Under the pieces are notes generated by a model. That model was not told the DNA's origin and made no database searches. It was given only the letters and a program-made list of their open reading frames with translations. A stretch of DNA of 64,000 bases from Actinomycetota bacterium. GTDB lineage: Bacteria; Actinomycetota; UBA4738; HRBIN12. Position 1 is the stretch's first letter. Each line of letters opens with the position of its first letter. Positions 5,137 through 57,994 of this stretch are shown here, one piece after another. The DNA is taken from contig DATBLA010000185.1 of NCBI GenBank assembly GCA_036555645.1, positions 17,694-81,693 on the forward strand, given 5' to 3'. A program made the translations under genes and the position numbers.

Positions 5137-5172
5137 CGGTTCCCGGCCCGTCGGGGCGGCTACCCTACCCAG

Positions 5173-18774: not shown

Positions 18775-18776
18775 AG

Positions 18777-24188: not shown

Positions 24189-24545
24189 ATGCCCGTGTAC
24201 TTTGTCTCGCCCGCGGAAGTCGTCCGAGGCCTCCTCACCTACACCGACTGGTGGCAGCCGTCCACCGCGTCGATCCTTCAGGTGGGGGGCGGTCGTCGCG
24301 CGTCGTGGGTCGAGGACGGCGTCAACGTCGGGCTGCTGGACCGACTCGACGAGCGGGCCGAGCTGCGGCGACGGATGCAGATGCTCGGCGAGACCGAGCG
24401 GCACTTGCTGTACCTCTGGTACGTGGTGCAGGTTCCCGCCGCCGGGATCGCCCGCGAGCTGAAGATCTCCCGCCGCCAGTGCTTCCGGCGCCGCGCCTCG
24501 GCGATCCGACGGATCGTCGAGCTCGGCGAGAGCGCGGCGGCCTGA
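24189..24545 (+). CDS. Small protein with sigma-70 region-4-like HTH
   Basis: LGETERHLLYLWYVVQVPAAGIARELKISRRQCFRRRASAIRRIVEL resembles ECF sigma region 4. Locally AT-richer upstream sequence. Confidence 0.45.
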   Translation: MPVYFVSPAEVVRGLLTYTDWWQPSTASILQVGGGRRASWVEDGVNVGLLDRLDERAELRRRMQMLGETERHLLYLWYVVQVPAAGIARELKISRRQCFRRRASAIRRIVELGESAAA

Positions 24546-24600: not shown

Positions 24601-24843
24601 TTGGACACCGCAACGAGCATCACGGAGTACGTCCGCGATGAGCTGCTCGTCGGCGACGGCGAGCTGAACGCCGATACCCCGCTGTGGGACGGCGCCATCG
24701 ACTCGGTCGCCCTCATCCAGCTCATCTCGTTCATCGAGGAGCGATTCGGCGTCGAGATCGATGATGCCGAGCTGACCTCGGACCACTTCAACACGGTCGC
24801 CGACATCGCCGCCCTCGTCGATCGCAAGCTCGCCTCGGCATGA
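24601..24843 (+). CDS. Acyl/peptidyl carrier protein (DltC-like)
   Basis: 80 aa. LWDGAIDSVALIQLISFIEERFGVEI with phosphopantetheine-attachment Ser in DS context. Confidence 0.8.
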   Translation: MDTATSITEYVRDELLVGDGELNADTPLWDGAIDSVALIQLISFIEERFGVEIDDAELTSDHFNTVADIAALVDRKLASA

Positions 24844-24880
24844 GGAGCCCGCTCGACGACGGCGACCGGAGGAGGCTCGG

Positions 24881-26470
24881 ATGAGCGTCTTCGCCGTGCA
24901 CCACCTGCTCGAGCGATCGGCGGAGTCGGTTCCGGACCGGATCGCCGTTCGGTGCGACGGCGCCGAGCTCTCGTACGCGGAGCTCGAGCGCCGATCGAGC
25001 GGGATCGCGGCGACGCTCGTGGACGCCGGGGTCGAGCCGGGCGACCGCGTCGGCCTGTACGTGCCGAAGAGCGTGGACACCGTCGCGGCGATCTACGGGA
25101 TCATGAAGGCGGGCGCCGCGTACGTCCCGATCGATCCGAGCTCGCCGGTGCTTCGCGCGGCGACGATCGCAGGTGATTGCACGGTCGCGGCGATGGTCAC
25201 CACGCCCGATCGGCTGCCGCAGCTCGCGGAGGGTCTCGGGGATCACCGCCCGCGCTGTGCGCTGCTCGTGGGTGACGTGGGGTCCGCGGACGGCGGATCG
25301 ATCCCGTCGATCGGGCTGGCGGATGCGGCCGACGCGGGAGGCCCCGATCCTCGTGTTCCGGTCGTCGACACGGACCTCGCGTACATCCTGTACACGTCGG
25401 GCTCCACCGGTACGCCCAAGGGCGTGATGCTGACGCATCGCCACGCGATCACCTTCGTCGAATGGTGCGCGAGCACGATCGGCACCCAGCCGGACGACCG
25501 GTTCTCGAACCACGCGCCGTTCCACTTCGACCTGTCGGTGTTCGATCTGTACGTCGCCGCGTACGGAGGCGCGAGCGTGTCGATCGTTCCCGAGCGGCGC
25601 GCCTACTTCGGGCGCGACCTCGCCTCGTTCCTCCGCGAGGAGTCGATCACGGTCTGGTACTCGGTGCCGTCGGCGCTCATGCTGATCGCGCGGGCCGTCG
25701 ACGAGGGCGAGTCGTTCCCGTCCCTGCGCGCCGTCGTGTTCGCGGGCGAGGTCTACCCGACGAAGCATCTGCGAGCGCTCATGTCCGTCGTCCCCGCCGC
25801 GGAGCTCTGGAACCTCTACGGCCCCACGGAGACGAACGTCTGCACCGCCTACCGCGTCACCGAGCTCGAGGACGACGCGCCGATCCCGATCGGCCGGGCG
25901 ATCGAGAACACCGAGGTCGTCGCGGTCACGGACGACGGTCGGGCTGCGGGCGTCGACGAGGAGGGCGAGCTCTACGTCCGAGGGTCGACGGTCATGAAGG
26001 GGTACTGGGGCAACCCGGAGCGCTCGGCCGAGGTGCTCGTGCCGCATCCGCTCCGCAGCGACGTCGTCGATCCCGTCTACCGGACGGGCGATCTCGTCCG
26101 TCTTCGACCCGATGGCGACTACGACTTCCTCGGCCGCCGAGATCACCAGATCAAGAGTCGCGGGTACCGGATCGAGCTCGGCGAGGTCGAGGCGGCGCTC
26201 CATGCGGACCCTCGCGTGGACGTGGCGGTCGCGATCGCCGTGCCGCACGAGGACTGGGGGACCGCGATCGTCGCCTACGTCGTGCCCAAGCAGGCGGACG
26301 AGGTTCCCACGGAGATCGACGTGAAGCGTCACGCGGCCCAGCGGCTCCCGCGATACATGGTCCCGGCCCGCGTGGAGATCCGGGACGAGCTGCCTCGGAC
26401 CTCGACGGGCAAGGTCGACCGGCGCACGGTCGCCGACGAGGCGACGGCCCGGGCGTGGTCGTGGAGCTGA
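24881..26470 (+). CDS. Standalone adenylation-domain (AMP-binding) enzyme, DltA/NRPS A-domain-like
   Basis: LAYILYTSGSTGTPKGVMLTHR (A3 core), YGPTETNV, YRTGDLVR, ...GKVDRR (A10). 529 aa, no C/T/TE domains. Confidence 0.85.
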   Translation: MSVFAVHHLLERSAESVPDRIAVRCDGAELSYAELERRSSGIAATLVDAGVEPGDRVGLYVPKSVDTVAAIYGIMKAGAAYVPIDPSSPVLRAATIAGDCTVAAMVTTPDRLPQLAEGLGDHRPRCALLVGDVGSADGGSIPSIGLADAADAGGPDPRVPVVDTDLAYILYTSGSTGTPKGVMLTHRHAITFVEWCASTIGTQPDDRFSNHAPFHFDLSVFDLYVAAYGGASVSIVPERRAYFGRDLASFLREESITVWYSVPSALMLIARAVDEGESFPSLRAVVFAGEVYPTKHLRALMSVVPAAELWNLYGPTETNVCTAYRVTELEDDAPIPIGRAIENTEVVAVTDDGRAAGVDEEGELYVRGSTVMKGYWGNPERSAEVLVPHPLRSDVVDPVYRTGDLVRLRPDGDYDFLGRRDHQIKSRGYRIELGEVEAALHADPRVDVAVAIAVPHEDWGTAIVAYVVPKQADEVPTEIDVKRHAAQRLPRYMVPARVEIRDELPRTSTGKVDRRTVADEATARAWSWS

Positions 26471-28713: not shown

Positions 28714-30021
28714 ATGAGAGGAACCGCCGCGCTTCGCCGCCGGATCCTGTCCCGGCGAGCGAAGGTCGCCGTGATCGGTCAGGGATACGTCGGGGTGTCG
28801 CTCGCATGCGCGGCCTCCGAGGCCGGGTTCCCGGTCGTCGGGACCGACATCGACGCCGGACGGATCGCGGATCTGGCTCGAGGTGTCCTGTCCGTCCCCG
28901 GCGTGAGCTCCCAGCTGTTCCGGGCCGGCGTCGAAGCTGGCAACGCCACGTTCTCGACGGACATCGGCGTCATCCGCGATGCCGATCTCGTCCTCATCTG
29001 CGTCCCGACCCCCGTCCGGGACCACGCGCCGGATCTGTCCTTCGTCGAGCAGGCCGCCCGCGACGTTGCGGCCAACCTCACGCCCGGCAAGCTCGTCGTC
29101 CTGGAGTCCACGACCTACCCGGGGACGACCGAGGACCTCATCCGGCCGATCCTCGAGACGTCCGGGCTGGGGGCGGGCCGGGACTTCCTCCTCGCGTACT
29201 CGCCCGAACGGATCGACCCGGGCAACGATGAGTTCGGACTCCGGAACACGCCGAAGATCGTTGGCGGGCTGTCGCCCGAGTCCACCGGTCTCGCCGCCCT
29301 GTTCTACGAGCAGCTCGTCGAGAAGGTCATGGTCGTCTCGTCCTGCCGGGCGGCGGAGCTCGCCAAGCTGCTGGAGAACACGTTCCGGCACGTGAACATC
29401 GCGCTCGTGAACGAGATGGCCACGCTCTGCCACGAGATGGGCATCGACGTCTGGGAGGTCGCGGAGGCAGCGGCGACGAAGCCGTTCGGGTTCATGTCGT
29501 TCTCACCCGGCCCGGGGGTGGGCGGCCATTGCATCCCGCTGGATCCCGCGTATCTCGCCTGGCAGGTGCGCCGGGACGCGGGGCATCAGTTCCGCATCCT
29601 CGAGCAGGCACAGGACATCAACGCCCAGATGCCGGGATACGTGGCGGCGCGCATCGGCGACGCCCTCAACGACGTCGGCAAGCCGGTGAAGGGATCGCGG
29701 ATCCTCGTCCTCGGCGTCGCCTACAAGGCCGATGTGGGGGACATCCGCGAGTCACCCGCGCTGAAGGTGATGACCATGCTGCACCGCCGCGGGGCGATCG
29801 TGACGTTCAACGACCCACACGCGCAGAAGGTGCAGGTGAACGGCATGCTGCTGTCGAGCGCCGAGCTCACGCAGCGGGAGCTCGCGGTCGCGGACTGCGT
29901 CGCGCTGCTCACCCCCCATCGCGCGTACGACCTCGAATGGATCGCCGAGCATGCGGCGCTCGTCTTCGATGCCCGCAACGCGTTCGGCTCGGACCGCCGC
30001 CGGAACGTCGTGCGGCTGTGA
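28714..30021 (+). CDS. Nucleotide-sugar 6-dehydrogenase (UDP-glucose/UDP-N-acetyl-hexosamine dehydrogenase family)
   Basis: VAVIGQGYVGVSLA Rossmann, ...GGHCIPLDP catalytic Cys region. Confidence 0.85.
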   Translation: MRGTAALRRRILSRRAKVAVIGQGYVGVSLACAASEAGFPVVGTDIDAGRIADLARGVLSVPGVSSQLFRAGVEAGNATFSTDIGVIRDADLVLICVPTPVRDHAPDLSFVEQAARDVAANLTPGKLVVLESTTYPGTTEDLIRPILETSGLGAGRDFLLAYSPERIDPGNDEFGLRNTPKIVGGLSPESTGLAALFYEQLVEKVMVVSSCRAAELAKLLENTFRHVNIALVNEMATLCHEMGIDVWEVAEAAATKPFGFMSFSPGPGVGGHCIPLDPAYLAWQVRRDAGHQFRILEQAQDINAQMPGYVAARIGDALNDVGKPVKGSRILVLGVAYKADVGDIRESPALKVMTMLHRRGAIVTFNDPHAQKVQVNGMLLSSAELTQRELAVADCVALLTPHRAYDLEWIAEHAALVFDARNAFGSDRRRNVVRL

Positions 30022-30299
30022 GCGCTGCCCGGACCTACGAGCGCCGTCCCGTGCTCTGGCGTCGCTGCGGCGACGAGATCCTCGTGGCGGTCCCCGAGCG
30101 GGACGGAGTCGGACGCCTGTCCGAGCCGGCCTCGCTCGTCTGGCACCTGCTGGATCGACCGTCCTCGGCGGAGGCGCTGACCGCGGAGGTGGCGTCTCGG
30201 TTCGACGATTCGGGACGGGACGTCGCGGACCGGGTCGAGGCCATGCTCGCCGAGCTCGTTGCGGAAGGATGGATCCGACCGGTGGCATCGGATGGGTGA
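30018..30299 (+). CDS. Third PqqD-family protein (GTGA overlap with dehydrogenase)
   Basis: ILVAVPERDGVGRLSEPASLVWHLLDRPSSAEALTAEVASRFDDSGRDVADRVEAMLAELVAEGWI. Confidence 0.65.
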   Translation: MSAARTYERRPVLWRRCGDEILVAVPERDGVGRLSEPASLVWHLLDRPSSAEALTAEVASRFDDSGRDVADRVEAMLAELVAEGWIRPVASDG

Positions 30300-31461
30300 C
30301 CGGCCCGTCGCCCCTCCCGAGGTCCGCCGGATCGCCTCCGCCGGTCTCCCGGACGGGCCGCGGTCGATCCGGATCGCGGCGGACCGATGGCCCACCGTGC
30401 TCTCGGGTCTCCGGTTCTGCCGGCTCACGGGCTTCGCCGTCGGCGCCTGGAAGGACGGGACGCTCGAGCTGACCGAGCTCCAGAGGGACGAGCTGCTCGA
30501 GCACCACCGCTCGGCGATGCTGCTGGCGCTGGCGATCGAGCAGCGGCTCCTGCGTCTGCAGATCTCGCTTCAGGCCGCGCAGGTTCGAGCCGTCGTGCTG
30601 AAGGGCCCGGCCATGGCCCACGCGGCCTACCCGGAGCCGTCCCTGCGCTCGTTCGGCGACCTCGATCTGCTGGTGAGCGCGACGCAGTGGCGTCGTGCCT
30701 GCCAGGTCCTTCGAACCAGCGGGTACGAACGCGACCTGCCCGAGCCTCGTCCGCGGTTCGACGAGCGGTTCGGCAAGTCGGCGACCCACACCGACGAGCA
30801 GGGGTATCAGGTCGATCTGCACCGGACGCTGGTGCTGGGCGCGTTCGGCCTGTGGCTGGATCCGGAGGAGCTCCTCGGTCACACCGGGACGTTCACGCTG
30901 GCAGGGCGGAACGTCGAGCGGCTGGACACCACCGGGATGCTCCTGAACGCCGCGCTGCACGCGAGCCTGGGATCCTCACCGCCGCTGCTGGTCCCGCTGC
31001 GGGACGTCGCCCAGCTCGCCCACGACCCCGGAGTGGACTGGGGACGGCTCGCCGCCTGGTCGGCGCGCTGGCACCTCGCGGCGCCGCTGGCGTTCGCGTT
31101 CCGGTCGGCGTCCGAGCACCTGGAGGTGGGCCTCCCGGCGGCCGCACGAGCCATGGCCGAAATCGTCTCGCCGAACGCCGAACGGCGCGCGCTGGCCGCC
31201 TACACTGAACGGCGTCGAACGGGAGGCCTGGCGCTGACCGCCACCCGGGCGATCCCCGGTGTCCGCGCAAAGGCCGCCTACACGTTCGGGATGCTCGTGC
31301 CCAGCCGCGAGTTCCTCCGGGCTCGGGCGGGACGAGGCTCGAAGCCGACCTACCGAGCCCGCTGGAGCGTGCCGATGCGGTGGGTGGGTCGTCGGCCGAG
31401 GAATCACGGAACGGAGAACCTGATGAGTGCTCATTCCATCGATCACGGGACGTCGGAGTGA
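30292..31461 (+). CDS. Nucleotidyltransferase-family protein (NTP_transf_5-like)
   Basis: VVLKGPAMAHAAYPEPSLRSFGDLDLLV: GS-x-D-h-D-h nucleotidyltransferase motif. About 389 aa. ATGGGTGA overlap with PqqD. Confidence 0.55.
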   Translation: MGDRPVAPPEVRRIASAGLPDGPRSIRIAADRWPTVLSGLRFCRLTGFAVGAWKDGTLELTELQRDELLEHHRSAMLLALAIEQRLLRLQISLQAAQVRAVVLKGPAMAHAAYPEPSLRSFGDLDLLVSATQWRRACQVLRTSGYERDLPEPRPRFDERFGKSATHTDEQGYQVDLHRTLVLGAFGLWLDPEELLGHTGTFTLAGRNVERLDTTGMLLNAALHASLGSSPPLLVPLRDVAQLAHDPGVDWGRLAAWSARWHLAAPLAFAFRSASEHLEVGLPAAARAMAEIVSPNAERRALAAYTERRRTGGLALTATRAIPGVRAKAAYTFGMLVPSREFLRARAGRGSKPTYRARWSVPMRWVGRRPRNHGTENLMSAHSIDHGTSE

Positions 31462-32237
31462 TCGCGCAGACCTGGCGGAGTCGCCCGCTCGTGCTGTCGT
31501 TCGTCCGGCGGCAGTATCAGCTCCGGTATCGCCAGTCGCTGGCGGGGTTTTTCTGGGCGATCGTTCCTCCGATCGCGAGCCTGCTCGTGGCGACGCTCGT
31601 GTTCCACGAGGTCATCGGCGTGCAGACGGGGGATCCCAATGTGCCCTACCCGCTGTTCGTGCTGGCCGGCCTGGTCCCGTGGTCGTTCTTCACGAGCAGC
31701 GTGACGGCCGGCGTCGGGAGCGTGGCGTCCTCGCAGACGATGGTGACGCGACTGGCCTTCCCCCGGGCGATCATCCCTCTGTCCGTCGTGGGCACCGGCC
31801 TGATCGATCTCGGCATCACGGTCCTCGTGTTCATCGGCTTCCTCATCGTGACCACGACGGGCGTGCCCATCACGGTGCTGTGGACGCCGGTGTTGCTCGC
31901 GATCGAGATCGTCTTCGTGACCGGTGTCGTCCTGTTCGGAAGCGCGCTCAACGTGTTCGCGCGCGACATTCGCCTCGCGATCCCTCTCATCATGCAGTTG
32001 TGGCTGTTCCTGACCCCCGTGATGTACCCGCTCAGCTCCGTTCCCGACAATCTCCTGCCCTTCTTCCTCGCGAATCCCATGACCGGCCTGATCGAATCGT
32101 TCCGCGAGGTGATCATCGCCGGGAACGCGCCGGACATCACGGTCCTGATGCCCGCCATCATCGGCGCCGTGCTGGCCTTCGCCCTGGGCACGTGGTACTT
32201 CGGCGTCACCGAGTCGCGGTTCGCGGATGTGATCTGA
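31458..32237 (+). CDS. ABC-2 type polysaccharide exporter permease (Wzm-like)
   Basis: RRQYQLRYRQSLAGFFWAIVPP N-terminal signature, six predicted TM helices. Confidence 0.8.
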   Translation: MIAQTWRSRPLVLSFVRRQYQLRYRQSLAGFFWAIVPPIASLLVATLVFHEVIGVQTGDPNVPYPLFVLAGLVPWSFFTSSVTAGVGSVASSQTMVTRLAFPRAIIPLSVVGTGLIDLGITVLVFIGFLIVTTTGVPITVLWTPVLLAIEIVFVTGVVLFGSALNVFARDIRLAIPLIMQLWLFLTPVMYPLSSVPDNLLPFFLANPMTGLIESFREVIIAGNAPDITVLMPAIIGAVLAFALGTWYFGVTESRFADVI

Positions 32238-32238
32238 C

Positions 32239-33477
32239 GTGGACGCGATCACGCTCGAGTCGGTGACGAAGACCTACCGGGTGGGCGTCGGACGGGCGCG
32301 CGTGCGCGAGATGCTGCCGCCGCCATTTGATCGCGTCGTCCGTTGGGCCGCCCCCGGGTGGTGGGCGCGCGACACGTTCAACGCGCTGGACGCCGTGTCG
32401 CTGTCGATCCCGGACGGTTCCTCGATCGGGATCGTCGGCCACAACGGCGCGGGCAAGACCACGATGCTGAAGGTGATCGCCGGTGTGACCTCGTCCACCT
32501 CGGGCCACGTGAAGGTGCACGGCCGGGTCGCCGCCCTCATCGACGTCGTCGTGGGCCTGCACCCCGATCTGACGGGCCGCGAGAACATCTACCTCCTGGG
32601 GGCGATGCACGGCCTCGGACGCAAGTCGATGCGCGAGCGCATCGACCGTGTGGTCGAGTTCGCGGAGATCGACGACCTCATCGACACCCCGCTCAAGCGG
32701 TGCTCGGCGGGGATGATCACCCGGATCGGCTTCGGCGCCATCACGGCGCTGGACGCCGACGTGCTGCTCGTGGACGAGGTGCTGTCGGTCGGGGACGCCG
32801 CCTTCCAGCGCAAGTGCGCGACGTGGCTCGAGGACTATCGGGACGGTGGCGGGACGCTGCTGTTCGTGTCGCACAACCTCGGGTTGGTCCGGAGCATGAC
32901 GAACCGCGCGATCTGGCTCGACCACGGCAAGGTGGTCTCGGACGGTGACACGAACTCCGTGCTGATGGAGTACGGCCGTGCGATGGAGCGCCGACAGGCG
33001 CCCGAGGAGGTTCACGCGAAGGGTCAGGTTCGCAAGCTCATGCGCGCCCGCGGGATGAACCGCTGGGGGATGGGCGGCGCGCGCGTCGAGGAGGTCCACG
33101 TCGGCGAGATCCTCGACGGGCTCGCGCTCGACGTCCGGATCGCGTTCGAGGCCAGCGAGGTCGATCGAGCCGTGTTCTGCGTGGGGTTCATCGACGAGAG
33201 CGGGACCGAGATCGGCGCGGCCGCGTCGCCGGAGGTGGACGTCCGCAACACCACCGGAGAGGTCACGTGCCGCATCCGTCCCCTCCCATTGCGGTCCGGG
33301 ATCTACTTCCCGGTCGTGGCGATCCTGTCGGACGACGGCATGGTGCGCGATCGCTGGCAGCTTGATCGCGCGCTCGTGGTCGACCGCAACGGCGACGGTG
33401 TGCTGCCGGACGGGTTCGGGCCGATCGACCTGCCCGCCGCGTGGATCACCGAGGGGGGCGCCGAGGTCGGCGCCTGA
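32239..33477 (+). CDS. ABC transporter ATP-binding protein (Wzt-like) with C-terminal extra domain
   Basis: GIVGHNGAGKTTMLK Walker A, CSAGMITRIGF signature, LLVDEVLSVGD Walker B. About 160 aa C-terminal extension. Confidence 0.85.
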   Translation: MDAITLESVTKTYRVGVGRARVREMLPPPFDRVVRWAAPGWWARDTFNALDAVSLSIPDGSSIGIVGHNGAGKTTMLKVIAGVTSSTSGHVKVHGRVAALIDVVVGLHPDLTGRENIYLLGAMHGLGRKSMRERIDRVVEFAEIDDLIDTPLKRCSAGMITRIGFGAITALDADVLLVDEVLSVGDAAFQRKCATWLEDYRDGGGTLLFVSHNLGLVRSMTNRAIWLDHGKVVSDGDTNSVLMEYGRAMERRQAPEEVHAKGQVRKLMRARGMNRWGMGGARVEEVHVGEILDGLALDVRIAFEASEVDRAVFCVGFIDESGTEIGAAASPEVDVRNTTGEVTCRIRPLPLRSGIYFPVVAILSDDGMVRDRWQLDRALVVDRNGDGVLPDGFGPIDLPAAWITEGGAEVGA

Positions 33478-39768: not shown

Positions 39769-41154
39769 GTGAGCATGCTCGATGTCGCCGTTCGCAACCG
39801 GTCGAGGTGGGCGCTCCTCGGCGTGGGGCTCGTCGTCGTGGCGATGTACATCGCCATCCTGCTGTACCTCATGGAGCGGAGCACGTGGGACACGTGGGGC
39901 GCGATGGTCATCGGTCCCGTCCTGTATCTGATCAGCATCCCCGCCTTCGTCCGGCAGGCGAAACGAGAGAACGACCGGCGCGTCGTGTGGCTGCTGGTCA
40001 CCGCGCTCACGGTGAAGTTCGTCTTCTCGCTGCTCCGGTATCACCAGGCGTTCAACCTCGTGAACAAGGCCGACGCCCAGGCCTACGACGCCACCGGAAC
40101 CGAGATCGCGCTCCGGTTCCTGTCCGGGGACTACTCGACGGGCCTCGAGGGGTGGCTGGACTCCAATTTCATCCGGCTGTTCACCGGTCTGATCTACACC
40201 GTGATCCGTCCGACGGCGGCCGGGGCGTTCCTCATCTACGCGTGGCTGGCGTTCTGGGGGACGTACTTCTTCTACCGGGCGTTCGTGCTCGCGGTGCCCG
40301 ACGGGAACCGGCGGAGCTACGGGCGCTGGCTGTTCTTCCTGCCGTCGATCCTGTTCTGGCCCTCGAGCATCGGCAAGGAGTCCTGGCTCATCTTCGGGCT
40401 GGGGATCGCGGCGTTCGGGGCGGCGAAGGTGCTGTCCGAGCGGGTCATGCCCGGGCTGCTCGTGGCCGCGCTCGGCATCGGCCTGACGGCGCTCGTCCGG
40501 ACCCCGTCGGCGGTCGCGATGGGGATCGGGCTCGTCGTCGGGGGCTTCCTGCGACGGCCCAAACGCGAGCTTCGCCATCTCGGGCCGATCGCCAAGCTCG
40601 CCACGACCGGATTGTTCGTCGGTCTCGCCCTGGTGATGTTCCTCGTGCTCCAGGAATACCTCGCCCGCGAAGGACTCGGAGGACAGGACATCGACAGCCT
40701 GCTTGCGGAGTCCCAGCGTCTGACGGCCACCGGGGGCTCCGAGTTCACGCCGACGTCGATCACCTCGCCCATCGGCCTCATGATCGCGGCCGTGACGGTG
40801 CTGTTCCGCCCCTTCCTGTTCGAGGCGAACAACGCGGAGGCCGTCGTCACCGCGCTCGAGGCGTCGGTGCTCATGGTGTTCACGCTCGTCCGATGGCGAT
40901 CGATCTGGGCGGCCATCAGAGGCGTGCGTCGCATCCCGTACGCGGCCGTGGCCATCACGTACGTCGGAGCGGCGATCGTCGCGCTCTCCGCCGTGGCGAA
41001 CTTCGGGATCATCGCTCGGCAGCGAACGCTCATCTTCCCGATGTTCCTCGTGCTCCTGTGCGTGGCGCCCGCTCGTCGCGCGCGGTCGGAGGCGGACCAT
41101 CGCGCCGAGGTGCCCGCCGCCGGCACCAGGGCGCTCGTCGGAGCCCGGCGGTGA
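39769..41154 (+). CDS. Polytopic membrane protein, putative oligosaccharide repeat-unit polymerase (Wzy-like)
   Basis: About 10 hydrophobic segments. No recognisable catalytic motif. Position next to O-antigen-ligase-like gene. Confidence 0.45.
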   Translation: MSMLDVAVRNRSRWALLGVGLVVVAMYIAILLYLMERSTWDTWGAMVIGPVLYLISIPAFVRQAKRENDRRVVWLLVTALTVKFVFSLLRYHQAFNLVNKADAQAYDATGTEIALRFLSGDYSTGLEGWLDSNFIRLFTGLIYTVIRPTAAGAFLIYAWLAFWGTYFFYRAFVLAVPDGNRRSYGRWLFFLPSILFWPSSIGKESWLIFGLGIAAFGAAKVLSERVMPGLLVAALGIGLTALVRTPSAVAMGIGLVVGGFLRRPKRELRHLGPIAKLATTGLFVGLALVMFLVLQEYLAREGLGGQDIDSLLAESQRLTATGGSEFTPTSITSPIGLMIAAVTVLFRPFLFEANNAEAVVTALEASVLMVFTLVRWRSIWAAIRGVRRIPYAAVAITYVGAAIVALSAVANFGIIARQRTLIFPMFLVLLCVAPARRARSEADHRAEVPAAGTRALVGARR

Positions 41155-43219: not shown

Positions 43220-44125
43220 ATGATCCAGACCGACGTCTCGGCATCTCCCGCCGCGACCCGAGTGATGGCCGACGGCTCGCCGGAGCGCGTCGAGTTCCTC
43301 GGCGCCGAGGGAGAACGTCTCCTGTCGTATCTGCACCTGCCGGCCTCGAGCCCGCGCGGCGCCGTCGTGATCTGTCCCGCGCTGCACGGCGAGTTCATGC
43401 GCAACTACCGTCGCGAGGTCCTGCTCGCCCGCAAGCTGGCCCACATCGGCTTCGCGGTGGATCGCGTCCAGTACCGCTTCTCGGGCAACAGCGACGGTGA
43501 GGACTCGGACCTGTCCTTCGACTCGATGCGCGAGGATGCGCTGTTCTCCGTGGAGCGCGTGCGGGAGCTGGCCCCGGGCGTTCCCGTGTTCCTGGCCGGC
43601 ACCCGATGGGGCGCGATGATCGCCGCCGCCGCCGCACGCAACCATCCCGACGCCGGGGTGGTGCTGTGGGAGCCGGTGCTCACGGGATCGCAGTTCTTCA
43701 AGGACGCCTTCCGGAACAAGGCCTTTCGCGATCTTCGCGACGGGATCGAGCAGCCGGCCACGAGCGACGAGCTCGAGGAGCGACTGCGGGGCGGCGAACC
43801 CGTGGACGTCGTGGCCCATCGCATCGAGGTGGAGCTGTACCGGTCCTGCATCGACCGGTCGCTGGACACGGAGATGGGAGACTCGCACCGGAACGTCCTG
43901 CTCACGCAGATCGGTCCCTCGGCGCTGCGAAAGCCGTTCGCCCGCCAGGTCGAGCGGTGGCAGGCGGCGGGGATCGAGGTCGACGTGGAGATCGTGCGTG
44001 GCGAGGAGAACTGGTGGCTCATCCAGGAACGTTGGAGCGACGAGGGGACCCATCCGCTCACGCGAGCGCTCGTCGCGCTGAGCGCGACGTGGCTGTCGGC
44101 CCACGCGGGCGAGGTCGCGTCGTGA
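43220..44125 (+). CDS. Alpha/beta-fold hydrolase, paralog type 1, copy 1
   Basis: VVICPALHGEFMRNYRREVLLARKLAHIGFAVDRVQYRFSGNSDGE...LAGTRWGAMIAAAAA. Nucleophile position appears to be W/R-G rather than GxSxG. Confidence 0.55.
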   Translation: MIQTDVSASPAATRVMADGSPERVEFLGAEGERLLSYLHLPASSPRGAVVICPALHGEFMRNYRREVLLARKLAHIGFAVDRVQYRFSGNSDGEDSDLSFDSMREDALFSVERVRELAPGVPVFLAGTRWGAMIAAAAARNHPDAGVVLWEPVLTGSQFFKDAFRNKAFRDLRDGIEQPATSDELEERLRGGEPVDVVAHRIEVELYRSCIDRSLDTEMGDSHRNVLLTQIGPSALRKPFARQVERWQAAGIEVDVEIVRGEENWWLIQERWSDEGTHPLTRALVALSATWLSAHAGEVAS

Positions 44126-45108
44126 CCGGGGCGGCCGTGACGTATCGGGAGGCACCCGTCTTCCTCGAGTCGGGGGAGGACTCGCTGTTCGCGATCGTCA
44201 CCGTCCCGGCGCGAGGACGGGCGACGGCCGGGTTGATCGTGCTTCCCGGCGGCGCGACACCGCTCACGACGAACCGCAACCGTCTGTCGGTGAGGATCTG
44301 CCGCGCGCTGGCTCGCGAGGGCTACGCGGCGATGCGGCTGGACTACCACGGCACGGGCGACAGCACCGGGGTCCTCGATCAGATCCGCCTGGACCAGCCG
44401 GTCGTCGAGGACGTCGCGGCCGGCGTCGCCTACCTGCGGTCGATCGGCGTGGAACGCGTGGCGCTCGCCGGGTCGTGCTACGGGGCTCGCAACGCCCTGG
44501 AGACGGCGGCGGCGTTGCCGGAGGTGTCGGAGGTCATCATGATCGCGCCGTCGACGCTGGACTACGTCCTCGGCGAGCGCGGGGGAGTCAACCGCGCGAA
44601 GAAGTGGTCGCTTGGCCGCTACGCGATCGAAGCGCTCCGCCCACGGACGATCGCGGGCGTGTTCAGCAGCCGCAAGCGCCGAAGCTACGGGATCTACGCG
44701 CGCGCGAAGATGAAGGAGATGCGTCGGAAGCTTCCCGGCCGGCAGGCGGACGCGACCGGGTCGGAGGCGGAGATGGATGCGAGCCCGGGATTCGAGCGGG
44801 CGATGAGGACGCTCGCCGACCGCGGCGCGCCGGTCCTGTTCGTCTACGGGGGGGAAGACGGGTTCTACGGGGAGTTCACGAGGGCCGCCGACGGACGACT
44901 CGGGGAGATCCTGGGAGGATCGACGGTCTCCGTCCGCGTGCTCCCGGGGAAGATCCACGGGTTCACCACGGTTCATGCGCAGGACGTCGCGCTGGAGGAG
45001 ATCCGCGGGTGGGCGGCCCGAACTCGCACGGATGGCTCGACCGAACCGATCGGCGAACCCGAGGCGGTCCCCGCGCTCGATCTCCCGGATCGGGCGGCCG
45101 AGGGCTGA
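44122..45108 (+). CDS. Alpha/beta-fold hydrolase, paralog type 2, copy 1
   Basis: GLIVLPGGATPLTTNRNRLSVRICRALAREGYAAMRLDYHGTGDSTG...LAGSCYGARNAL: nucleophile elbow carries Cys (GSCYG). Confidence 0.55.
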   Translation: MTGAAVTYREAPVFLESGEDSLFAIVTVPARGRATAGLIVLPGGATPLTTNRNRLSVRICRALAREGYAAMRLDYHGTGDSTGVLDQIRLDQPVVEDVAAGVAYLRSIGVERVALAGSCYGARNALETAAALPEVSEVIMIAPSTLDYVLGERGGVNRAKKWSLGRYAIEALRPRTIAGVFSSRKRRSYGIYARAKMKEMRRKLPGRQADATGSEAEMDASPGFERAMRTLADRGAPVLFVYGGEDGFYGEFTRAADGRLGEILGGSTVSVRVLPGKIHGFTTVHAQDVALEEIRGWAARTRTDGSTEPIGEPEAVPALDLPDRAAEG

Positions 45109-45151
45109 TCTGCGTGACCGACGATCCGCTCACATCGACCAGAGGAGACAG

Positions 45152-46063
45152 ATGACGATCGGCGAACAGCAACAGGCGGCCGTCGCCACACGCGTCGACG
45201 AGGCGACCGGGACCGCCGAACGGGTGGAGTTCCGCGGAGCCGGCCGCGAACGGGTGTTCTCGGTGCAGTACACGCCCGCCACCGAGCCGGTCGGCGGCCT
45301 GCTCGTCTGCCCCGCGCTGGCCAGCGAGTTCACGCAGAATTACCGACGCGAGGTGCTGCTCGCTCGCCGTCTGGCCGAGATGGGCTTCGTGGTCGAGCGG
45401 TTCCACTACCGGTTCACCGGCAACAGCGACGGCGACTCCGCGAACCTCACCTTCGACTCGATGCGAGAGGATGCGGTCGCGGCGACCGAGCACCTGCGGG
45501 GGCTGGCCCCCGGGCTGCCGCTGTTCCTCCTCGGCACCCGATGGGGATCCCTGGTCGCCGCGTCGGCCGCCGCGTCGTCCGATGCGGGCCTCGTGCTCTG
45601 GGAGCCCGAGCTCGACACCGCCCGGTTCTTCAAGGATGCGTTCCGCGCCCGCCTCGTCTACGACCGCAAGCGGGGGGTGGAGGAGCCGCTCACCGGCGCT
45701 CAGCTGATCGAACGGGTCCGGGCCGGGGACCCCGTCGAGGCGATGGGGCACACGATCGAGCCCGAGCTGTTCCACTCGTCCGAGGGCCGCACGCTCGAGG
45801 GCGAGCTCGGGTCGACGCCTCGCGCGATCTTCGTCCTCCAGCTCGGTGGGACGGGTGTCGTCGGGCAGGCGCTCTCGTCGCAGATCGACCGCTGGAGCGA
45901 GGCCGGGTTCCGGGTCGATGTGGAGACGGTCAAGGGAGACGAGACGTGGTGGGTGATCGACGAGCGTCTGAACGACATGGGTGACCAGCCGATGACCAAG
46001 CGACTCATCGAGCTCACGTCCGCGTGGCTGGCCACCAGCGTGGGACGGCAGGTCGAGGCATGA
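45152..46063 (+). CDS. Alpha/beta-fold hydrolase, paralog type 1, copy 2
   Basis: LLVCPALASEFTQNYRREVLLARRLAEMGFVVERFHYRFTGNSDGD...LLGTRWGSLVAASAA. Confidence 0.55.
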   Translation: MTIGEQQQAAVATRVDEATGTAERVEFRGAGRERVFSVQYTPATEPVGGLLVCPALASEFTQNYRREVLLARRLAEMGFVVERFHYRFTGNSDGDSANLTFDSMREDAVAATEHLRGLAPGLPLFLLGTRWGSLVAASAAASSDAGLVLWEPELDTARFFKDAFRARLVYDRKRGVEEPLTGAQLIERVRAGDPVEAMGHTIEPELFHSSEGRTLEGELGSTPRAIFVLQLGGTGVVGQALSSQIDRWSEAGFRVDVETVKGDETWWVIDERLNDMGDQPMTKRLIELTSAWLATSVGRQVEA

Positions 46064-47019
46064 GCGCGGACCCGCGACCCGACTACGTGGAGCGGCCGAT
46101 GTACTTCGACGTGGACGGTGAGGCGGTGTTCGGCATCCTCACGCGGTCACTCGACGAGCACGTGGACACGGCCGTGATCGTGCTTCCGGGCGGCGGCGTG
46201 CCGCTCACGACCAACCGCAACCGGCTGACGGTCCGGATCTGTCGCGACCTGGCCGGCCTCGGCGTCGCGGCGTTCCGGATGGATTACCACGGGACCGGCG
46301 AGAGCACCGGCTCCGTCGGGGGATTCCACACGGGGCACCCGTTCTGGGGGGACGTCCGCGCGGCCATCTCGCGGCTGAAGGAGGAGGGGCTCACGCGATT
46401 CGTGCTCGTGGGCTCGTGTTTCGGGTCGCGCACGGCGCTGTCTGCGGCCGCCCATCTGGACGACGTGGAGGAGGTCCTGCTGTTCTCCGTCCCGCTGGGC
46501 GACTACGCGATGGGGGAGCGCAAGAGCGTCACGACCGCGCAGCGCCACCACCTCGGCCACTACGCGAGGGCAGCCCTCAGGCCCCGGACGTGGCGGGCGC
46601 TGCTCAGCCGCCGCGGCCGGTGGGTGCTCTGGAACCACGCGCGGGCCAAGCTGCGCGTCATCTGGACGCGGTTGTCGCGTCTGGCCGGGCGCGCGCCTTC
46701 GTCCGAGCCCCACGCCGAGCACATCAGTCCTCGATTCCGTCGCGGGCTCGAGCGGCTGATCGAGCGAGGCGTCCCCGTGACCTTCGTCTTCGGTGATGAC
46801 GAGGACTATCACCGGGAGTTCGAGGAGGCTCGCCGGCACGAGCTGGGCGAGATCCTGGCGCGGGGGGGCTCCAAGGTTCGGATCGTGACGCTGCCGGGGC
46901 GGATCCACGGGTTCACGACCCTGGCATCGCAGGACGCGTCGCTCGGCGTGATCACCGAGTGGGCGCGGGGCCGGCGGGCAGGGTTCGTGCCGGGGACGCC
47001 GACGGACGTCGCGTCCTAG
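46060..47019 (+). CDS. Alpha/beta-fold hydrolase, paralog type 2, copy 2
   Basis: VIVLPGGGVPLTTNRNRLTVRICRDLAGLGVAAFRMDYHGTGESTG...LVGSCFGSRTAL. Confidence 0.55.
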   Translation: MSADPRPDYVERPMYFDVDGEAVFGILTRSLDEHVDTAVIVLPGGGVPLTTNRNRLTVRICRDLAGLGVAAFRMDYHGTGESTGSVGGFHTGHPFWGDVRAAISRLKEEGLTRFVLVGSCFGSRTALSAAAHLDDVEEVLLFSVPLGDYAMGERKSVTTAQRHHLGHYARAALRPRTWRALLSRRGRWVLWNHARAKLRVIWTRLSRLAGRAPSSEPHAEHISPRFRRGLERLIERGVPVTFVFGDDEDYHREFEEARRHELGEILARGGSKVRIVTLPGRIHGFTTLASQDASLGVITEWARGRRAGFVPGTPTDVAS

Positions 47020-47073
47020 CCGGGGCGCGCCGCCGCCTCGCGGACTCCGGTCCACGGAACCACGATCTCCGTG

Positions 47074-48042
47074 TCATCCGGCGAACGCCGCTCGACGATG
47101 TTCGGGAGGGAGGGGACCTTGGCGATCTCCATCGATCCGGCGACGCGACCCGTCGCGACGGCCACCTTCCCCGACGGGCTCGTCGAACGAGCGGAGTACC
47201 TGGGGCCTCCGGGGGCACGCGTGCTCACGCTCCAGCACGTGCCGACGGCGCAGCCGAGGGCCGCGGTCGTGATCTGCTCGCCGATCCACGGTGAGTTCGC
47301 TCGGAACTATCGGCGCGAGGTGCTCTTCGCGCGGCGGCTCGCTCGAGACGGCATCGCCGTCGAGCGGTTCCACTACCGGTGCACGGGCAACAGCGATGGA
47401 GACGGCGAGCACCTCACCTTCGACTCAATGGTCGAGGACTCCCTGTCGTGCGTGGAGCACCTCCTGCGAGAGGCGGGTGAGGTTCCGCTCGTCATCGTCG
47501 GCGCGCGCTGGGGCTCGATCGTCGCGGCCTCGACGGCCGCCCGAAGTGGCGCCGCCGTCGCCGTCGTCCTGTGGGAGCCGTTGCTCGATGCGTCCCGATT
47601 CTTCAAGGATGCGTTCCGGAACAAGCTGGTGAAGGAGAAGCGTGCCGGGGCGATCGACATCGAGACGAGCGCGGATCTGGAGCGGCGTCTCCTCGCCGGC
47701 GAGTCCGTCGACGTCGTCGCGCATCGGATCGAGGTCGAGCTGTACCGCACATCGGCGGGGCGAACGCTGGGCGATGAGCTCGGGACGGATCCGCGGGATC
47801 TGCTCGTCGTGCAGCTGGGCACGACCGGGACGCTTCGACGGGAGATCGTCCAACAGGTCGAACACTGGCAGACCGCTGGGCTGCGGGTCGACACGGCGGT
47901 CGTTCGCGGAGAAGAGGCCTGGTGGCTCGTGGACGAGACGCTGTACGACGAGGGCTCGAGACCGGTGACGCAGGAGCTCGTCACGGTCAGCACCGATTGG
48001 ATCGGCCGGCGGGCGCTCCCTCCGGGAGGATCGTCTCGATGA
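47074..48042 (+). CDS. Alpha/beta-fold hydrolase, paralog type 1, copy 3 (start 47074 or ATG 47098)
   Basis: VVICSPIHGEFARNYRREVLFARRLARDGIAVERFHYRCTGNSDGD...IVGARWGSIVAASTA. Confidence 0.55.
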   Translation, partial: SSGERRSTMFGREGTLAISIDPATRPVATATFPDGLVERAEYLGPPGARVLTLQHVPTAQPRAAVVICSPIHGEFARNYRREVLFARRLARDGIAVERFHYRCTGNSDGDGEHLTFDSMVEDSLSCVEHLLREAGEVPLVIVGARWGSIVAASTAARSGAAVAVVLWEPLLDASRFFKDAFRNKLVKEKRAGAIDIETSADLERRLLAGESVDVVAHRIEVELYRTSAGRTLGDELGTDPRDLLVVQLGTTGTLRREIVQQVEHWQTAGLRVDTAVVRGEEAWWLVDETLYDEGSRPVTQELVTVSTDWIGRRALPPGGSSR

Positions 48043-48986
48043 TCGCACGGGGCTACCTCGAGATGCCGGTGTTCTTCGAATCGGCCGGCGAGACCCTGTT
48101 CGGGATCGTGACGGTACCGGCGGATGGCCAGGCGCGAACCGGCCTCGTCATCCTTCCGGGCGGTGGGACGCCGTTCTCGGTGAACCGGAACCGCGTCTCG
48201 GTCCGCGTGTGCCGCGAGCTCGCGGCGCTCGGTGTGGCCGCCTTCCGGCCCGATTTCCACGGGGCGGGCGACAGCACCGGCCCAAGCGAGAAGCTCGCCC
48301 TCGATCGGCCCTATTCGGCCGATGTCCAGGCCGCCGCGCAGACGCTCCGGCAGCTCGGCGCGGAACGGATCGTCCTCGCGGGCTCGTGCTTCGGCGGGCG
48401 AAGCGCCCTGTCCGCCGCGCCGCTCGAGGACGACGTGCACGCGGTGATCCTCATCGCCACCTCGCTGCACGACTACGAGATGGGCGAGCGCAAGAGCGCT
48501 CGTGCCGCCGCGAACTGGTCCATGGGACGCTACGTCCGCGAGTCGGTGCAGCCTCGGAGGATCCGTGGGCTGTTCACGGCCCGCTCCCGCCGGTCATACG
48601 CGAAATACGTCCGGGCCAAGCTCGGGACGTTCGCCGCATGGAACCGGATGACCGGTCGGGAGGCCGGGGAGGGGGAGCGGAACACGGAAGTCGTGTCTCC
48701 GCTGTTCGCCACACCGCTTCGGCGTCTCCTGGACCGGGGCGGTCGCGTCCTGTTCATCTTCGGGAAGGACGACACGTCGTACGAGGAGTATCTGGAGGCG
48801 GCCGCCGGACCGCTCGCGGACGTCCTCGGCGGGGATCATCCCGGCGTCGAGGTGACCGTCGTACCGGGCAAGATCCACGGGTTCCTCTCGATTGCGGCTC
48901 AGGATCTCGTCGTGGACGAGATCGCGCGGTGGATGGCGGCCGATCGCTCGGCCCCGGCGCTCGCACGACCTCGGGTGGAGGAGTAG
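48039..48986 (+). CDS. Alpha/beta-fold hydrolase, paralog type 2, copy 3
   Basis: LVILPGGGTPFSVNRNRVSVRVCRELAALGVAAFRPDFHGAGDSTG...LAGSCFGGRSAL. Confidence 0.55.
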   Translation: MIARGYLEMPVFFESAGETLFGIVTVPADGQARTGLVILPGGGTPFSVNRNRVSVRVCRELAALGVAAFRPDFHGAGDSTGPSEKLALDRPYSADVQAAAQTLRQLGAERIVLAGSCFGGRSALSAAPLEDDVHAVILIATSLHDYEMGERKSARAAANWSMGRYVRESVQPRRIRGLFTARSRRSYAKYVRAKLGTFAAWNRMTGREAGEGERNTEVVSPLFATPLRRLLDRGGRVLFIFGKDDTSYEEYLEAAAGPLADVLGGDHPGVEVTVVPGKIHGFLSIAAQDLVVDEIARWMAADRSAPALARPRVEE

Positions 48987-53940: not shown

Positions 53941-54804
53941 ATGCCAACCGACCGCTCCTACCGTGTCCTCGCCTACGAGTTTCGGATCGCGTCACCGCGC
54001 GGCCCGGGAGCGTTCCTTCACCGGATGCTCGCGCCGTTCGAGGACGAGGTGGCGTCCGACGCGGCTCGGTACGACTTCGCCCGGGAGCCGTCCGAGGCCA
54101 AGCCGTGGGTCGTCTACCTCGACGGTGAATGCATGCGGCGCGGGACGACACAGGATCCCGTGCTCGAGTTCGCGACGTGGCACATCAGCAACCGGGCGAT
54201 CGCGTCCGATCACGGCTTCTTCGCCGTCCACGCGGCGGCCGCCGCCCGAGGAGGCGCGGGTGTCCTGTTGCCCGGCCCTCCCGACGCCGGCAAGAGCACG
54301 CTCGTCGCCGCGCTGACCCGGGCGAGCTTCTCCTACCTCACGGACGAGGCGGCGCTGGTGGACCCGGTGGACGGGCTCCTGCATCCGTTCCCGAGGTCGC
54401 TCGGGCTGGACCGGGCATCCGTCGAGGCGGTCTTCGGCCCCGGCGCGCAGCCGAAGTGGCGGACGGGCCGGCAGTTCCACGTGCGACCCTCGGATCTGAG
54501 GCCCCGCGCCATCGGGAGGCCCAGCCCCGTCCGGTTCGTCATCGCCCCCCGATACGAGGCGGGTGCGGTCACGGTGCTCGAGCCAATGAGCCGCGCCGAG
54601 GCCGTCATGGTCCTGGCTCGCAACGCGTTCCATCTGGACCGGTTCGGTGGGGCGGGGATCGATCTGCTCGGACGTGTGGTGCTGCAGGCTTCCTGTTATC
54701 GCCTGTGCGTGGGAGACCTGGACGACGCGGTCGACGCGGTCAGCTCGGTGGTCGAGGCGGGGCGCCGGAGACGACCGCGGTCCGCGCGTGAAGGGGCGAT
54801 CTAG
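53941..54804 (+). CDS. HPr-kinase-C-like P-loop protein
   Basis: FFAVHAAAAARGGAGVLLPGPPDAGKSTLVAALTRASFSYLTDEAALV resembles HprK C-terminal kinase domain as found in RiPP/lasso tailoring kinases. Confidence 0.55.
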   Translation: MPTDRSYRVLAYEFRIASPRGPGAFLHRMLAPFEDEVASDAARYDFAREPSEAKPWVVYLDGECMRRGTTQDPVLEFATWHISNRAIASDHGFFAVHAAAAARGGAGVLLPGPPDAGKSTLVAALTRASFSYLTDEAALVDPVDGLLHPFPRSLGLDRASVEAVFGPGAQPKWRTGRQFHVRPSDLRPRAIGRPSPVRFVIAPRYEAGAVTVLEPMSRAEAVMVLARNAFHLDRFGGAGIDLLGRVVLQASCYRLCVGDLDDAVDAVSSVVEAGRRRRPRSAREGAI

Positions 54805-55499
54805 AAGACGGCGTCGGTGCGGTCGCCGTCGACGTCGTCGGCCGGGCCGTCGTCGCCCTCGTCCTCCGGGTCGCTCCCGTCGTGCGTCTGACCGCTCTCG
54901 TCGCCCTCGTCTTCCTCGTCCCGGACGTCGCCGTCGGACTCGGGCTCCTCATCGGTCCCGCCCTCGACGTCGCCGACCGTTCCGCTGCAACAGATCGTAA
55001 GCTCGACGCCGGAGATGCCCTGATTCTGACCATGGGGACCGGACGGACACGGTGTGAACAGCCAGGTGTTCGGCCCGATCTCCTGCGGCGATGTGCAGCC
55101 GCTGCTGCCGCACTTCGAGGCCCCGTCGACCAGCGTGCACCCGCTTGCGATCGTGACCGTGATCGTTCCGGTGTCGTCGTTCGGCGTCCGCGCGCTTGCC
55201 GCGACGAAGCCGCAACCACCATCGTCTCCGGTCTCTGGGTCGATGCAGTGATACCCGTTCGGGTTCTGCTCGGGCGAGCACCCGCCGCCCGTGCTGATCT
55301 TGACGGAGTAGCAGGCCTCCTGCGGAGTCCCCGCGTAGGCCGTCGCCGGGTTGATCGTCTGGATAACCGGAGCGGCCCACGCCGCAGCTCCGGCCACGGC
55401 CGCGCCGCGCAACACCTGGCGCCGGCTGACCCCCCGTTCGTCCGAATCGACGTGCTCGACCACGCGTCCTCCGCCACGAGGATCGTCGTGTCCCCGCAC
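54801..55499 (-). CDS. Tat-signal secreted Cys-rich protein with long acidic C-terminal tail
   Basis: SRRQVLRGAAVAGAAAWAAP twin-arginine signal. At least 10 Cys in about 130 aa. D/E-rich tail (DEEPESDGDVRDEEDEGDESG...). Convergent, 4-nt overlap with 53941 gene. Confidence 0.5.
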   Translation of the reverse strand: MRGHDDPRGGGRVVEHVDSDERGVSRRQVLRGAAVAGAAAWAAPVIQTINPATAYAGTPQEACYSVKISTGGGCSPEQNPNGYHCIDPETGDDGGCGFVAASARTPNDDTGTITVTIASGCTLVDGASKCGSSGCTSPQEIGPNTWLFTPCPSGPHGQNQGISGVELTICCSGTVGDVEGGTDEEPESDGDVRDEEDEGDESGQTHDGSDPEDEGDDGPADDVDGDRTDAVF

Positions 55500-55609: not shown

Positions 55610-55864
55610 ATGGATACGCAACTCCGGCCGGCCGATCGGCCCGATCGAGCGACCCGGCCCATCCCGTTCACGCGCGAGCGCGCGGCCACCGAGCTGACCC
55701 GCGCTCGGAGCCAGCTCGCGGACGCGCTGGGGTCGCTGGAGCTCGCGCTGGTCATCCTCCGAACGCTGCCCGATGTGGGCGAGCGCTGGCAGCTCGTTGC
55801 CGCCGAAGGGGTTCTGGCCCGGCTCGAGGAAGCCCGGCTGGCCCTGGACCGCGCCGGGATCTGA
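55610..55864 (+). CDS. Small hypothetical protein (85 aa)
   Basis: High GC3 ORF, predicted helical. No recognisable family. Confidence 0.3.
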   Translation: MDTQLRPADRPDRATRPIPFTRERAATELTRARSQLADALGSLELALVILRTLPDVGERWQLVAAEGVLARLEEARLALDRAGI

Positions 55865-55943: not shown

Positions 55944-55970
55944 TTAGCACTCACAGCAGCCGAGTGCTAA
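55944..55970 (+). promoter_or_regulatory. CIRCE element (HrcA operator)
   Basis: Perfect TTAGCACTC-N9-GAGTGCTAA 16 nt upstream of groES. Confidence 0.9.
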
Positions 55971-55985
55971 CGCCAAGGAGGGACA

Positions 55986-57994
<2,009 letters not shown>

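Follow-up and report, generated by a model that had tools for sequence, protein, structure and literature searches.

The subject of this report is a pair of convergent genes within a stretch of 64,000 nucleotides from an Actinomycetota bacterium (contig DATBLA010000185.1), called the window below. The plus-strand gene (53941–54804) encodes a P-loop HprK-like kinase of 287 residues and is the final gene of a long plus-strand polysaccharide operon. The minus-strand gene (54801–55463) encodes a protein of 220 residues, referred to here as the precursor. Its residues 1–44 (55332–55463) form a leader that would double as a signal for twin-arginine translocation (Tat), residues 45–160 (54984–55331) form the mature all-beta cysteine domain and residues 161–220 (54804–54983) form an acidic tail. 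The precursor is probably the substrate of an actinobacterial modification system that resembles those of the linear polyphosphorylated peptides (LPPs) and the 'HPr-rel-A' systems of NCBIfam, with the leader serving both modification and export.

The convergent genes and their products

The two genes share the tetranucleotide CTAG at 54801–54804, which, as read off the sequence, contains both stop codons. The kinase stop is TAG at 54802–54804, the precursor stop TAG is the reverse complement of 54801–54803, and the overlap is exactly 4 nt, as the first-pass annotation had given it. The homologous genes of the P0004 contig are annotated with an overlap of 4 nt as well. That annotation also described two genes, which is upheld, but placed the start of the minus-strand gene at 55499. 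Translation most likely starts at GTG 55463, in agreement with the homologue alignment and the NCBI gene call; the upstream GTG at 55499 is only the start of the longest open reading frame (ORF) and would yield 232 residues. NCBI protein P0001, whose source is named 'MAG TPA: Actinomycetota bacterium', is the precursor at 100% identity and 100% coverage over 220 residues. Could the minus-strand ORF, at the end of the kinase gene, be no more than a non-coding antisense artefact? The GC content of the window is about 71%, and long spurious ORFs are common at this composition, with many in the window. This reading is excluded, as had been expected, because the overlap with the kinase gene is merely 4 nt, the protein has hundreds of homologues that keep the cysteine positions, and its mature domain is modelled with confidence. 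Moreover, the GC content at third codon positions is 0.87 for the kinase ORF and 0.85–0.87 for the minus-strand ORF (54801–55499/55448), versus 0.55–0.73 throughout in the competing frames of both.

The precursor contains ten cysteine residues (51, 62, 73, 84, 109, 118, 123, 139, 158 and 159), in line with the earlier count of at least 10, and six of these are conserved in its family (51, 62, 73, 84, 123 and 158). A word-indexed search returned five relatives only, with 43–47% identity; a profile run against 1.84 billion cluster representatives matched 604 proteins at E ≤ 1e-3, of which 60 reached E ≤ 1e-10. The best-scoring matches are mostly 150–190 residues long and cover the profile end to end. 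The family is uncurated: no Pfam or NCBIfam model matches the mature domain in any of 55 members, for which Tat-signal models are the sole matches, and a sequence search of the PDB with the precursor returned nothing. AlphaFold2 with a deep alignment predicts a compact all-beta domain for residues ~50–160 with pLDDT values of 91–96, and the N-terminal 45 residues have low confidence. The homology and structure search of the cysteine region that had been suggested thus gave a large family and a confident model with no PDB match. Judged from profile matches, part of the cysteine domain is also a repeat module in the giant protein P0023 (1942 residues), where six separate stretches match profile positions 39–100. 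In another locus (L022, 11055–11987) a Ser/Thr-rich insert of about 100 residues interrupts the beta domain of a family member.

The acidic tail had been read correctly as a 60-residue Asp/Glu-rich segment; 27 of its residues (45%) are Asp or Glu and two are Lys or Arg. The mature domain ends in the family motif ISGVELTICC, and most of the 55 aligned family sequences stop 0–3 residues past the conserved ISHVExxFCC motif, so the tail is an add-on of the window protein. By composition and homologue comparison it is lineage-specific: three close homologues lack it, others have Gly/Thr/Pro/Ser-rich tails, and the residues past the CC motif vary (ES, SS, NH, ED or none). The tail was for this reason rejected as a functional element, and the suggestion that it binds metal or matrix is not borne out as a family feature. 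A C-terminal Ser was likewise dropped as a phosphorylation site by analogy with lasso peptide kinases, because the C-termini vary. The proposal of a secreted disulfide-rich protein is plausible from the Tat motif, the AxA site and the six conserved cysteines. Of the ten cysteines, only these six are conserved.

A Tat-type signal, SRRQVLRGAAVAGAAAWAAPVIQTINPATAYA, is present at the N-terminus as the first-pass annotation had proposed. The motif S13-R-R-Q-V-L-R19, with its twin arginines at 55419–55424, is followed by GAAVAGAAAWAAPVIQTINPATAYA; by inspection there is an uncharged h-region, GAAVAGAAAWAAPVI, and then A42-Y-A44 (55332–55340). The precursor scores 18.1 bits with TIGR01409 (Tat signal), above the cut-off of 16.7, and 20.7 bits with Pfam TAT_signal PF10518, just below the cut-off of 22.7. 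At E ≤ 0.01, 25 of the 55 members match TIGR01409 and 10 match Pfam TAT_signal. The twin arginines are invariant in all 55 sequences, as are W29 and P32 and no other column. A22, G25, A42, A44, P47 and the six cysteines are nearly invariant, and A42 and A44 are conserved in at least 90% of the family.

The residues W29-A-A-P32-V-I34 (55362–55379) form a second motif within the leader. Twin arginines followed by WxxPx[hydrophobic] were found in 190 of 205 retrieved proteins, with a spacing of 15–16 residues in 181, and the aromatic residue is always W. In a logo aligned on W, W and P are present in 100% of sequences, V/I at +5 in 97% and Q at +6 in 86%. The full leader logo reads G-[LIV]-[ST]-R-R-x-x-L-[KR]-[RK]-G-A-x-x-G-G-x-x-x-W-x-x-P-x-[VI]-Q-[TS]-...-A-x-A-(Q)-x-x-S-P-x-C. 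In families of secreted proteins the signal peptide is usually the least conserved part. As aligned here the precursor leader reverses this pattern, with an information content of 2.88 bits per column versus 1.62 for the core. Cleavage after A44 would place W29 at -16, P32 at -13, I34 at -11 and T46 at +2. T46, in the sequence G-T-P (codon at 55326–55328), lies just past the predicted cleavage site and is the candidate phospho-acceptor; the family consensus has S-P at core position ~+4. W29-x-x-P32-x-I34 is of the type bound by discrete PqqD-type recognition elements (RREs) for ribosomally made peptides that undergo post-translational modification (RiPPs) and is a putative docking site. By its motifs, the precursor leader appears to be a Tat export signal and a RiPP-type leader at once, and no description of a Tat-type RiPP leader was found in the literature.

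The kinase has a Walker A motif, GPPDAGKST, at residues 112–120 (54274–54300) and a YLTDEAA motif downstream of it (54334–54354), and the P-loop is conserved in its orthologues. It matches TIGR04352 (HprK_rel_A) with 122.2 bits and an E value of 2e-35, below the equivalog cut-off of 200, and by this score is a homologue and not an equivalog of that family. Its precomputed Pfam family is PF27840 (ScmC), and there is a weak match to the FomB family (E 5e-5). Hpr_kinase_C (PF07475) did not match the window kinase, and a PDB search with the kinase profile returned no HprK. Family searches of the window ORFs gave no HPr or phosphotransferase system (PTS) family, although no search aimed at HPr/PTS genes was made.

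The leader, the kinase and PqqD in related loci

Related loci were reached by three routes, from the precursor family, from the leader and, as a reverse test, from the kinase, and local hidden Markov models (HMMs) of the leader, of HprK-like kinases and of PqqD were used to scan them. A metagenome scan gave four short loci only. An HprK-like gene is found within 2 kb of a leader-bearing gene in 13–15 of the 18–20 loci with enough flanking sequence: the window, L001, L003, L004, L005, L007, L009, L012 and L015–L019, together with the P0002 and P0004 contigs. A convergent HprK-like gene follows the family member in the window, L001, L003, L005, L015, L016, L017, L019 and the P0002 and P0004 contigs, with stop-to-stop distances of -4 to ~90 nt. 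In L018 a gap of 376 nt separates the family member from a truncated kinase gene call, and in L004 a sulfatase-like gene stands between kinase and family member. The partner proteins have diverged. Between the window and L001 the identity is 46% for the precursor, 63% for the kinase and 78% for the DegT protein, and the precursors of L017–L019 are only ~30–35% identical to the window protein.

Adjacent PqqD genes occur in L007, L009, L012, L018 and L019. The convergent operon of L018 and L012 consists of a LuxR-type regulator, PqqD and PqqD (or PqqD-kinase-PqqD) and then the kinase, which is the gene set found at 17.8–20 kb in the window. The reverse test started from three kinases with 48%, 39% and 32% identity, and it recovered leader genes in L021 and L022 and none in L023.

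The leader is common to at least seven unrelated cores. A small cysteine-rich core with the motif CCYCW is encoded directly upstream of the kinase and on the same strand in L005 (9649–10029), L016 (4339–4782) and, twice, L021. The P0002 and P0004 contigs have unnamed genes of 114 and 127 residues in this position, which may be of this type. A Gly/Asn/Cys-rich core follows the PqqD gene in L007, a second locus of the genome that contains L005. Further cysteine-rich cores with the leader are present in L012, L009 (four copies) and L008, and in L018 (7250–7891) the leader is attached to a core of 213 residues that is not cysteine-rich. L009 is a compact version of the system; at 5044–8975 its four tandem leader-bearing cysteine-rich genes are interleaved with an HprK-like/PqqD fusion (5852–7105). 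In L010 (7995–8177) and L011 (7995–8174), which have no kinases, a gene of 59 residues encodes an RR...WxxP leader and a GSPK-(K)n-PPG tail. Both loci are syntenic with L007, minus its PqqD gene and its two HprK-like genes, and the short gene may be a remnant after loss of the module.

The polysaccharide locus of the window

The kinase and the precursor end a plus-strand polysaccharide locus of ~40 kb. Unless stated otherwise, genes were assigned from Pfam and NCBIfam matches and lie on the plus strand. The locus begins with a histidine kinase (15351–16913) and two LuxR-type response regulators (16961–17653 and 17810–18493), which are directly upstream of the PqqD genes and are likely regulators; in L012, L018 and L020, too, the module has LuxR-type regulators at its flank. 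Next come two tandem genes for PqqD-family RRE chaperones (18490–18774 and 18771–19058). They match TIGR04353, the 'HPr-rel-A system PqqD family peptide chaperone', at 41.5 and 59.3 bits, above the cut-off of 35. For the second of them the nearest solved structure is the lasso peptide RRE TfuB1 (6jx3, E 9e-5), followed by PbaB1 (9x90).

The gene that follows (19051–19956) encodes an HprK-like paralogue (local HprK HMM, E 1e-11) that has neither a Walker A nor a DE motif. In the alignment its P-loop position reads PSSLTTLLGS, and on this basis the paralogue is probably non-catalytic. It is perhaps the counterpart of 'kinase B' of NCBIfam, although TIGR04355, the model of that name, did not match it. 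Such paralogues accompany the active kinase in several other loci, for example L007 (9394–10260).

Between this paralogue and a third, weakly matching PqqD-like gene (30018–30299) are genes for sugar-modifying enzymes, a tyrosine autokinase, an acyl carrier protein (ACP), an acyl-CoA ligase and sulfotransferases. An NTP_transf_5 nucleotidyltransferase (30259–31461; PF14907, E 3e-30) and a Wzm/Wzt-type ATP-binding cassette (ABC) polysaccharide exporter (31380–33477), the only ABC system in the window, come next. They are followed by deacetylases, glycosyltransferases, six hydr1/hydr2-type alpha/beta-hydrolases, a WecA-like transferase, a DegT aminotransferase and then the kinase. The six hydrolase genes, arranged in hydr2/hydr1-like pairs, and the genes for the ACP and acyl-CoA ligase (together at 43220–48986 and 24601–26470) make up a set of accessory genes that typifies XrtA/PEP-CTERM exopolysaccharide loci of proteobacteria, and no exosortase was detected here. 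Two further ORFs (39769–41154, 461 residues, and 24189–24545, 118 residues) have good coding composition and no Pfam or NCBIfam match.

A SipW-like, S24/S26 or TIGR02228 peptidase was found neither in the window ORFs scanned nor in the Pfam lists of L018, L019, L021, L022 and L023. An MsbA-like exporter was also absent from the scanned window ORFs and from the Pfam-annotated related loci, and neither a lasso cyclase (Asn-synthetase-like) nor a transglutaminase-like B2 protease domain was found in the scanned window ORFs.

On the far side of the precursor gene, and divergent from it, is a small conserved plus-strand ORF of 84 residues (55610–55864) with no Pfam match. Its homologues (E 1e-10 to 1e-12) adjoin leader-bearing genes in L016 (2126–2584) and L014 (581–1042) and share with it the motif RPVPFTxERAxTEL...SLELAxEIF. 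The ORF may be a further component or a regulator, and its membership in the system is uncertain. Beyond it, a perfect CIRCE operator, TTAGCACTC-N9-GAGTGCTAA, is present at 55944–55970, upstream of groES (55986–56288) and groEL (56339–57994). CIRCE is the standard element for heat-shock control by HrcA. The precursor start (55463) is on the opposite strand ~480 nt from this operator, with the 84-residue ORF in between.

Proposed role and comparison with known systems

LPPs were described in 2026 and are the only characterised relative of the PqqD, HprK-like kinase and NTP_transf_5 cassettes that are widespread in exopolysaccharide loci, where NCBIfam names them the 'HPr-rel-A system'. LPP gene clusters of Bacillota lie within capsule loci and encode a PqqD RRE (LppB), an HprK-like kinase (LppK), a nucleotidyltransferase listed as NTP_transf_5 in the Supplementary Data (LppN), a SipW-like peptidase (LppS) and an MsbA-like exporter (LppD) (Popov et al., Nat Commun 2026, PMC13381572). 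The LPP precursors (LppA) have 35–200 residues, a conserved N-terminus and variable C-termini. Their leader motif is YxxPxVLxHQxIxFETxxS, of which Y-16, P-13 and V-11 insert into the RRE; cleavage takes place after T-1 and the kinase polyphosphorylates Ser3 of the core (PMC13381572). More generally, [Y/W]xxPx[LVIFA] is the motif bound by lasso-type RREs, and LPPs are stated to be restricted to Bacillota (PMC13381572).

The first-pass annotation had also proposed that the protein could serve the RRE and kinase machinery as a substrate or partner, and this proposal has gained comparative support. The WxxPx[VI] motif is invariant in the leader, the gene pair recurs in diverged lineages, and unrelated cores with the same leader adjoin HprK-like and PqqD genes. 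From the genes and motifs the following sequence of events can be proposed. In the cytoplasm the PqqD chaperone (18490–19058) would dock on the WxxP motif and would present the junction of leader and core to the P-loop kinase (53941–54804). The kinase, possibly together with its P-loop-less paralogue, would phosphorylate a Ser or Thr just past the cleavage site, with T46 as the candidate, and the NTP_transf_5 enzyme (30259–31461) may extend the phosphate. The folded and modified precursor would then exit via Tat, ordinary signal peptidase I would cut after AxA, and the six conserved cysteines would form disulfides outside the cell. It is suggested that the exported protein acts with the sulfated or acylated polysaccharide of the surrounding 40-kb locus; a role in the polysaccharide matrix, as with LPPs, is a guess by analogy. 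The absence of a SipW/S26 peptidase and of an MsbA exporter would be expected if Tat and the housekeeping signal peptidase replace them.

Several observations weigh against the substrate reading, which rests on comparative sequence and gene-neighbourhood data. The kinase and the precursor are convergent and hence not co-transcribed, and a distance of 35 kb separates the PqqD genes of the window from the precursor. In five informative loci the leader genes have no kinase nearby (L006, L008, L010, L011 and L020), the kinase-PqqD fusion locus L023 is without a leader gene within 6 kb, and the sample of loci is biased towards relatives of the window protein. The modules are all within polysaccharide loci, and this shared membership could explain part of the linkage. 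Within the scanned range, the [ST]P dipeptide past the cleavage site is missing in 41 of 190 sequences. Tat export of a disulfide-dependent fold is unusual, and the invariant W and P may have a part in some other recognition step.

The main rival explanation, less likely than the substrate reading, is that the precursor is an ordinary Tat-secreted, disulfide-stabilised matrix or surface protein, that the WxxP motif is a family quirk, and that the kinase and PqqD have another target, be it a different peptide or, as for FomB-type kinases, an intermediate of sugar or lipid nature. Here adjacency would follow from membership of the same exopolysaccharide cluster. The polysaccharide setting of all loci, the convergent, non-operonic arrangement, the weak FomB-family match of the kinase and the family members with no nearby kinase in L006 and L020 agree with this explanation. 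It does not account for a leader that is the most conserved part of the protein, with a fixed spacing from RR to W, nor for a motif and register that agree with the experimentally defined RRE-binding motif. Unrelated cores with this leader adjoin kinases and PqqD genes, some directly upstream in one operon, and a scan of the window with the leader HMM found no other candidate precursor. A quite different possibility is that the N-terminus is a purely cytoplasmic RiPP-type leader, with no functional Tat signal, that is removed by a dedicated protease before export by another route such as an ABC transporter. LPP precursors are exported by an ABC transporter, the window has the Wzm/Wzt pair, and the Pfam Tat-signal model falls just short of its cut-off on the precursor and, like TIGR01409, matches only a part of the family. 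This explanation is improbable in light of the invariant RR in [ST]RRxxL[KR], an uncharged stretch of ~18 residues and the AxA site, which make up the full anatomy of a Tat signal, and of the TIGR01409 score above cut-off. In addition, neither a dedicated leader peptidase nor an MsbA-type exporter was found in the annotated loci, and the six conserved cysteines point to an extracytoplasmic destination.

If the substrate reading is correct, this machinery gains a candidate substrate family in Actinomycetota that spans ~600 cluster representatives and several alternative cores, and a single sequence can serve as RiPP leader and as Tat export signal. The reading predicts that W29 and P32 are needed for chaperone binding, T46 for phosphorylation and the twin arginines for export. 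A bolder version can be put forward tentatively, and is on the whole doubtful. A PqqD-type RRE may have been recruited as a proofreading chaperone of the Tat signal, to hold the folded protein until a phosphate or phospho-glycan has been installed by the HprK-like kinase and NTP_transf_5, and the Tat-exported product may prime, anchor or organise the sulfated exopolysaccharide. This would represent a protein-sized, Tat-routed branch of RiPP biology and would supply the missing substrate of the 'HPr-rel-A' systems in exopolysaccharide loci.

Four known systems can be compared with that of the window. Tat proofreading chaperones of the TorD/DmsD type (redox enzyme maturation proteins) are cytoplasmic proteins that bind a Tat signal peptide until the passenger is complete and before it is exported. 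The parallel is entirely hypothetical, and the window candidate differs in that it is a PqqD winged helix-turn-helix, an unrelated fold, and in that a covalent modification would take the place of cofactor insertion. The HPr-rel-A systems (TIGR04353 PqqD_rel_X and TIGR04352) share with the window PqqD genes above cut-off, a homologous kinase and an exopolysaccharide locus with XrtA-type accessory genes, but at 122 bits the window kinase stays below the cut-off of 200 and is not an equivalog. In the literature, nothing relevant and no published substrate was found for HPr-rel-A, TIGR04352 or PF14907, and HPr kinases are not mentioned in the RRE-Finder paper. In the phosphorylated lasso peptides, such as paeninodin and pseudomycoidin, the precursor is bound through a WxxP leader by PqqD/B1, as would be the case here; paeninodin-type precursors are phosphorylated by HPr-kinase homologues and a nucleotidyltransferase then glycosylates the phosphate (PMC8498205). 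The window differs in having neither a lasso cyclase nor a B2 protease among the scanned ORFs. Lasso kinases modify a C-terminal Ser, and the lasso core is a peptide of ~20 residues whereas the window core is a protein domain.

The LPP systems provide the closest comparison. Both have a discrete PqqD RRE, an HprK-like kinase and NTP_transf_5 within a polysaccharide locus. In both, the precursors reach ~200 residues, vary strongly at the C-terminus and are conserved at the N-terminus, where an aromatic-xxPx[V/I] motif takes positions -16/-13/-11 relative to the cleavage site; a Ser or Thr is among the first few core residues, and the leader is cut at a site of the signal-peptidase type, which is a predicted site in the window protein. 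The window thus has three of the five LPP core genes, with the kinase likened to LppK by family. The differences are also clear. The window system is from Actinomycetota and not Bacillota, its leader consensus is WxxPxVQ[TS]...AxA, always with W and not Y, and the leader has an invariant twin-arginine motif and a hydrophobic stretch. The main core of its family is a folded six-cysteine beta domain of ~115 residues, and the kinase module usually has a P-loop-less paralogue and two PqqD genes. With another motif, another phylum, and no SipW-like peptidase or MsbA exporter among the scanned ORFs, the window system falls outside the definition of an LPP system. The missing peptidase and exporter are the very functions that the Tat signal and the AxA site would supply, and the window system most likely works like an LPP system.

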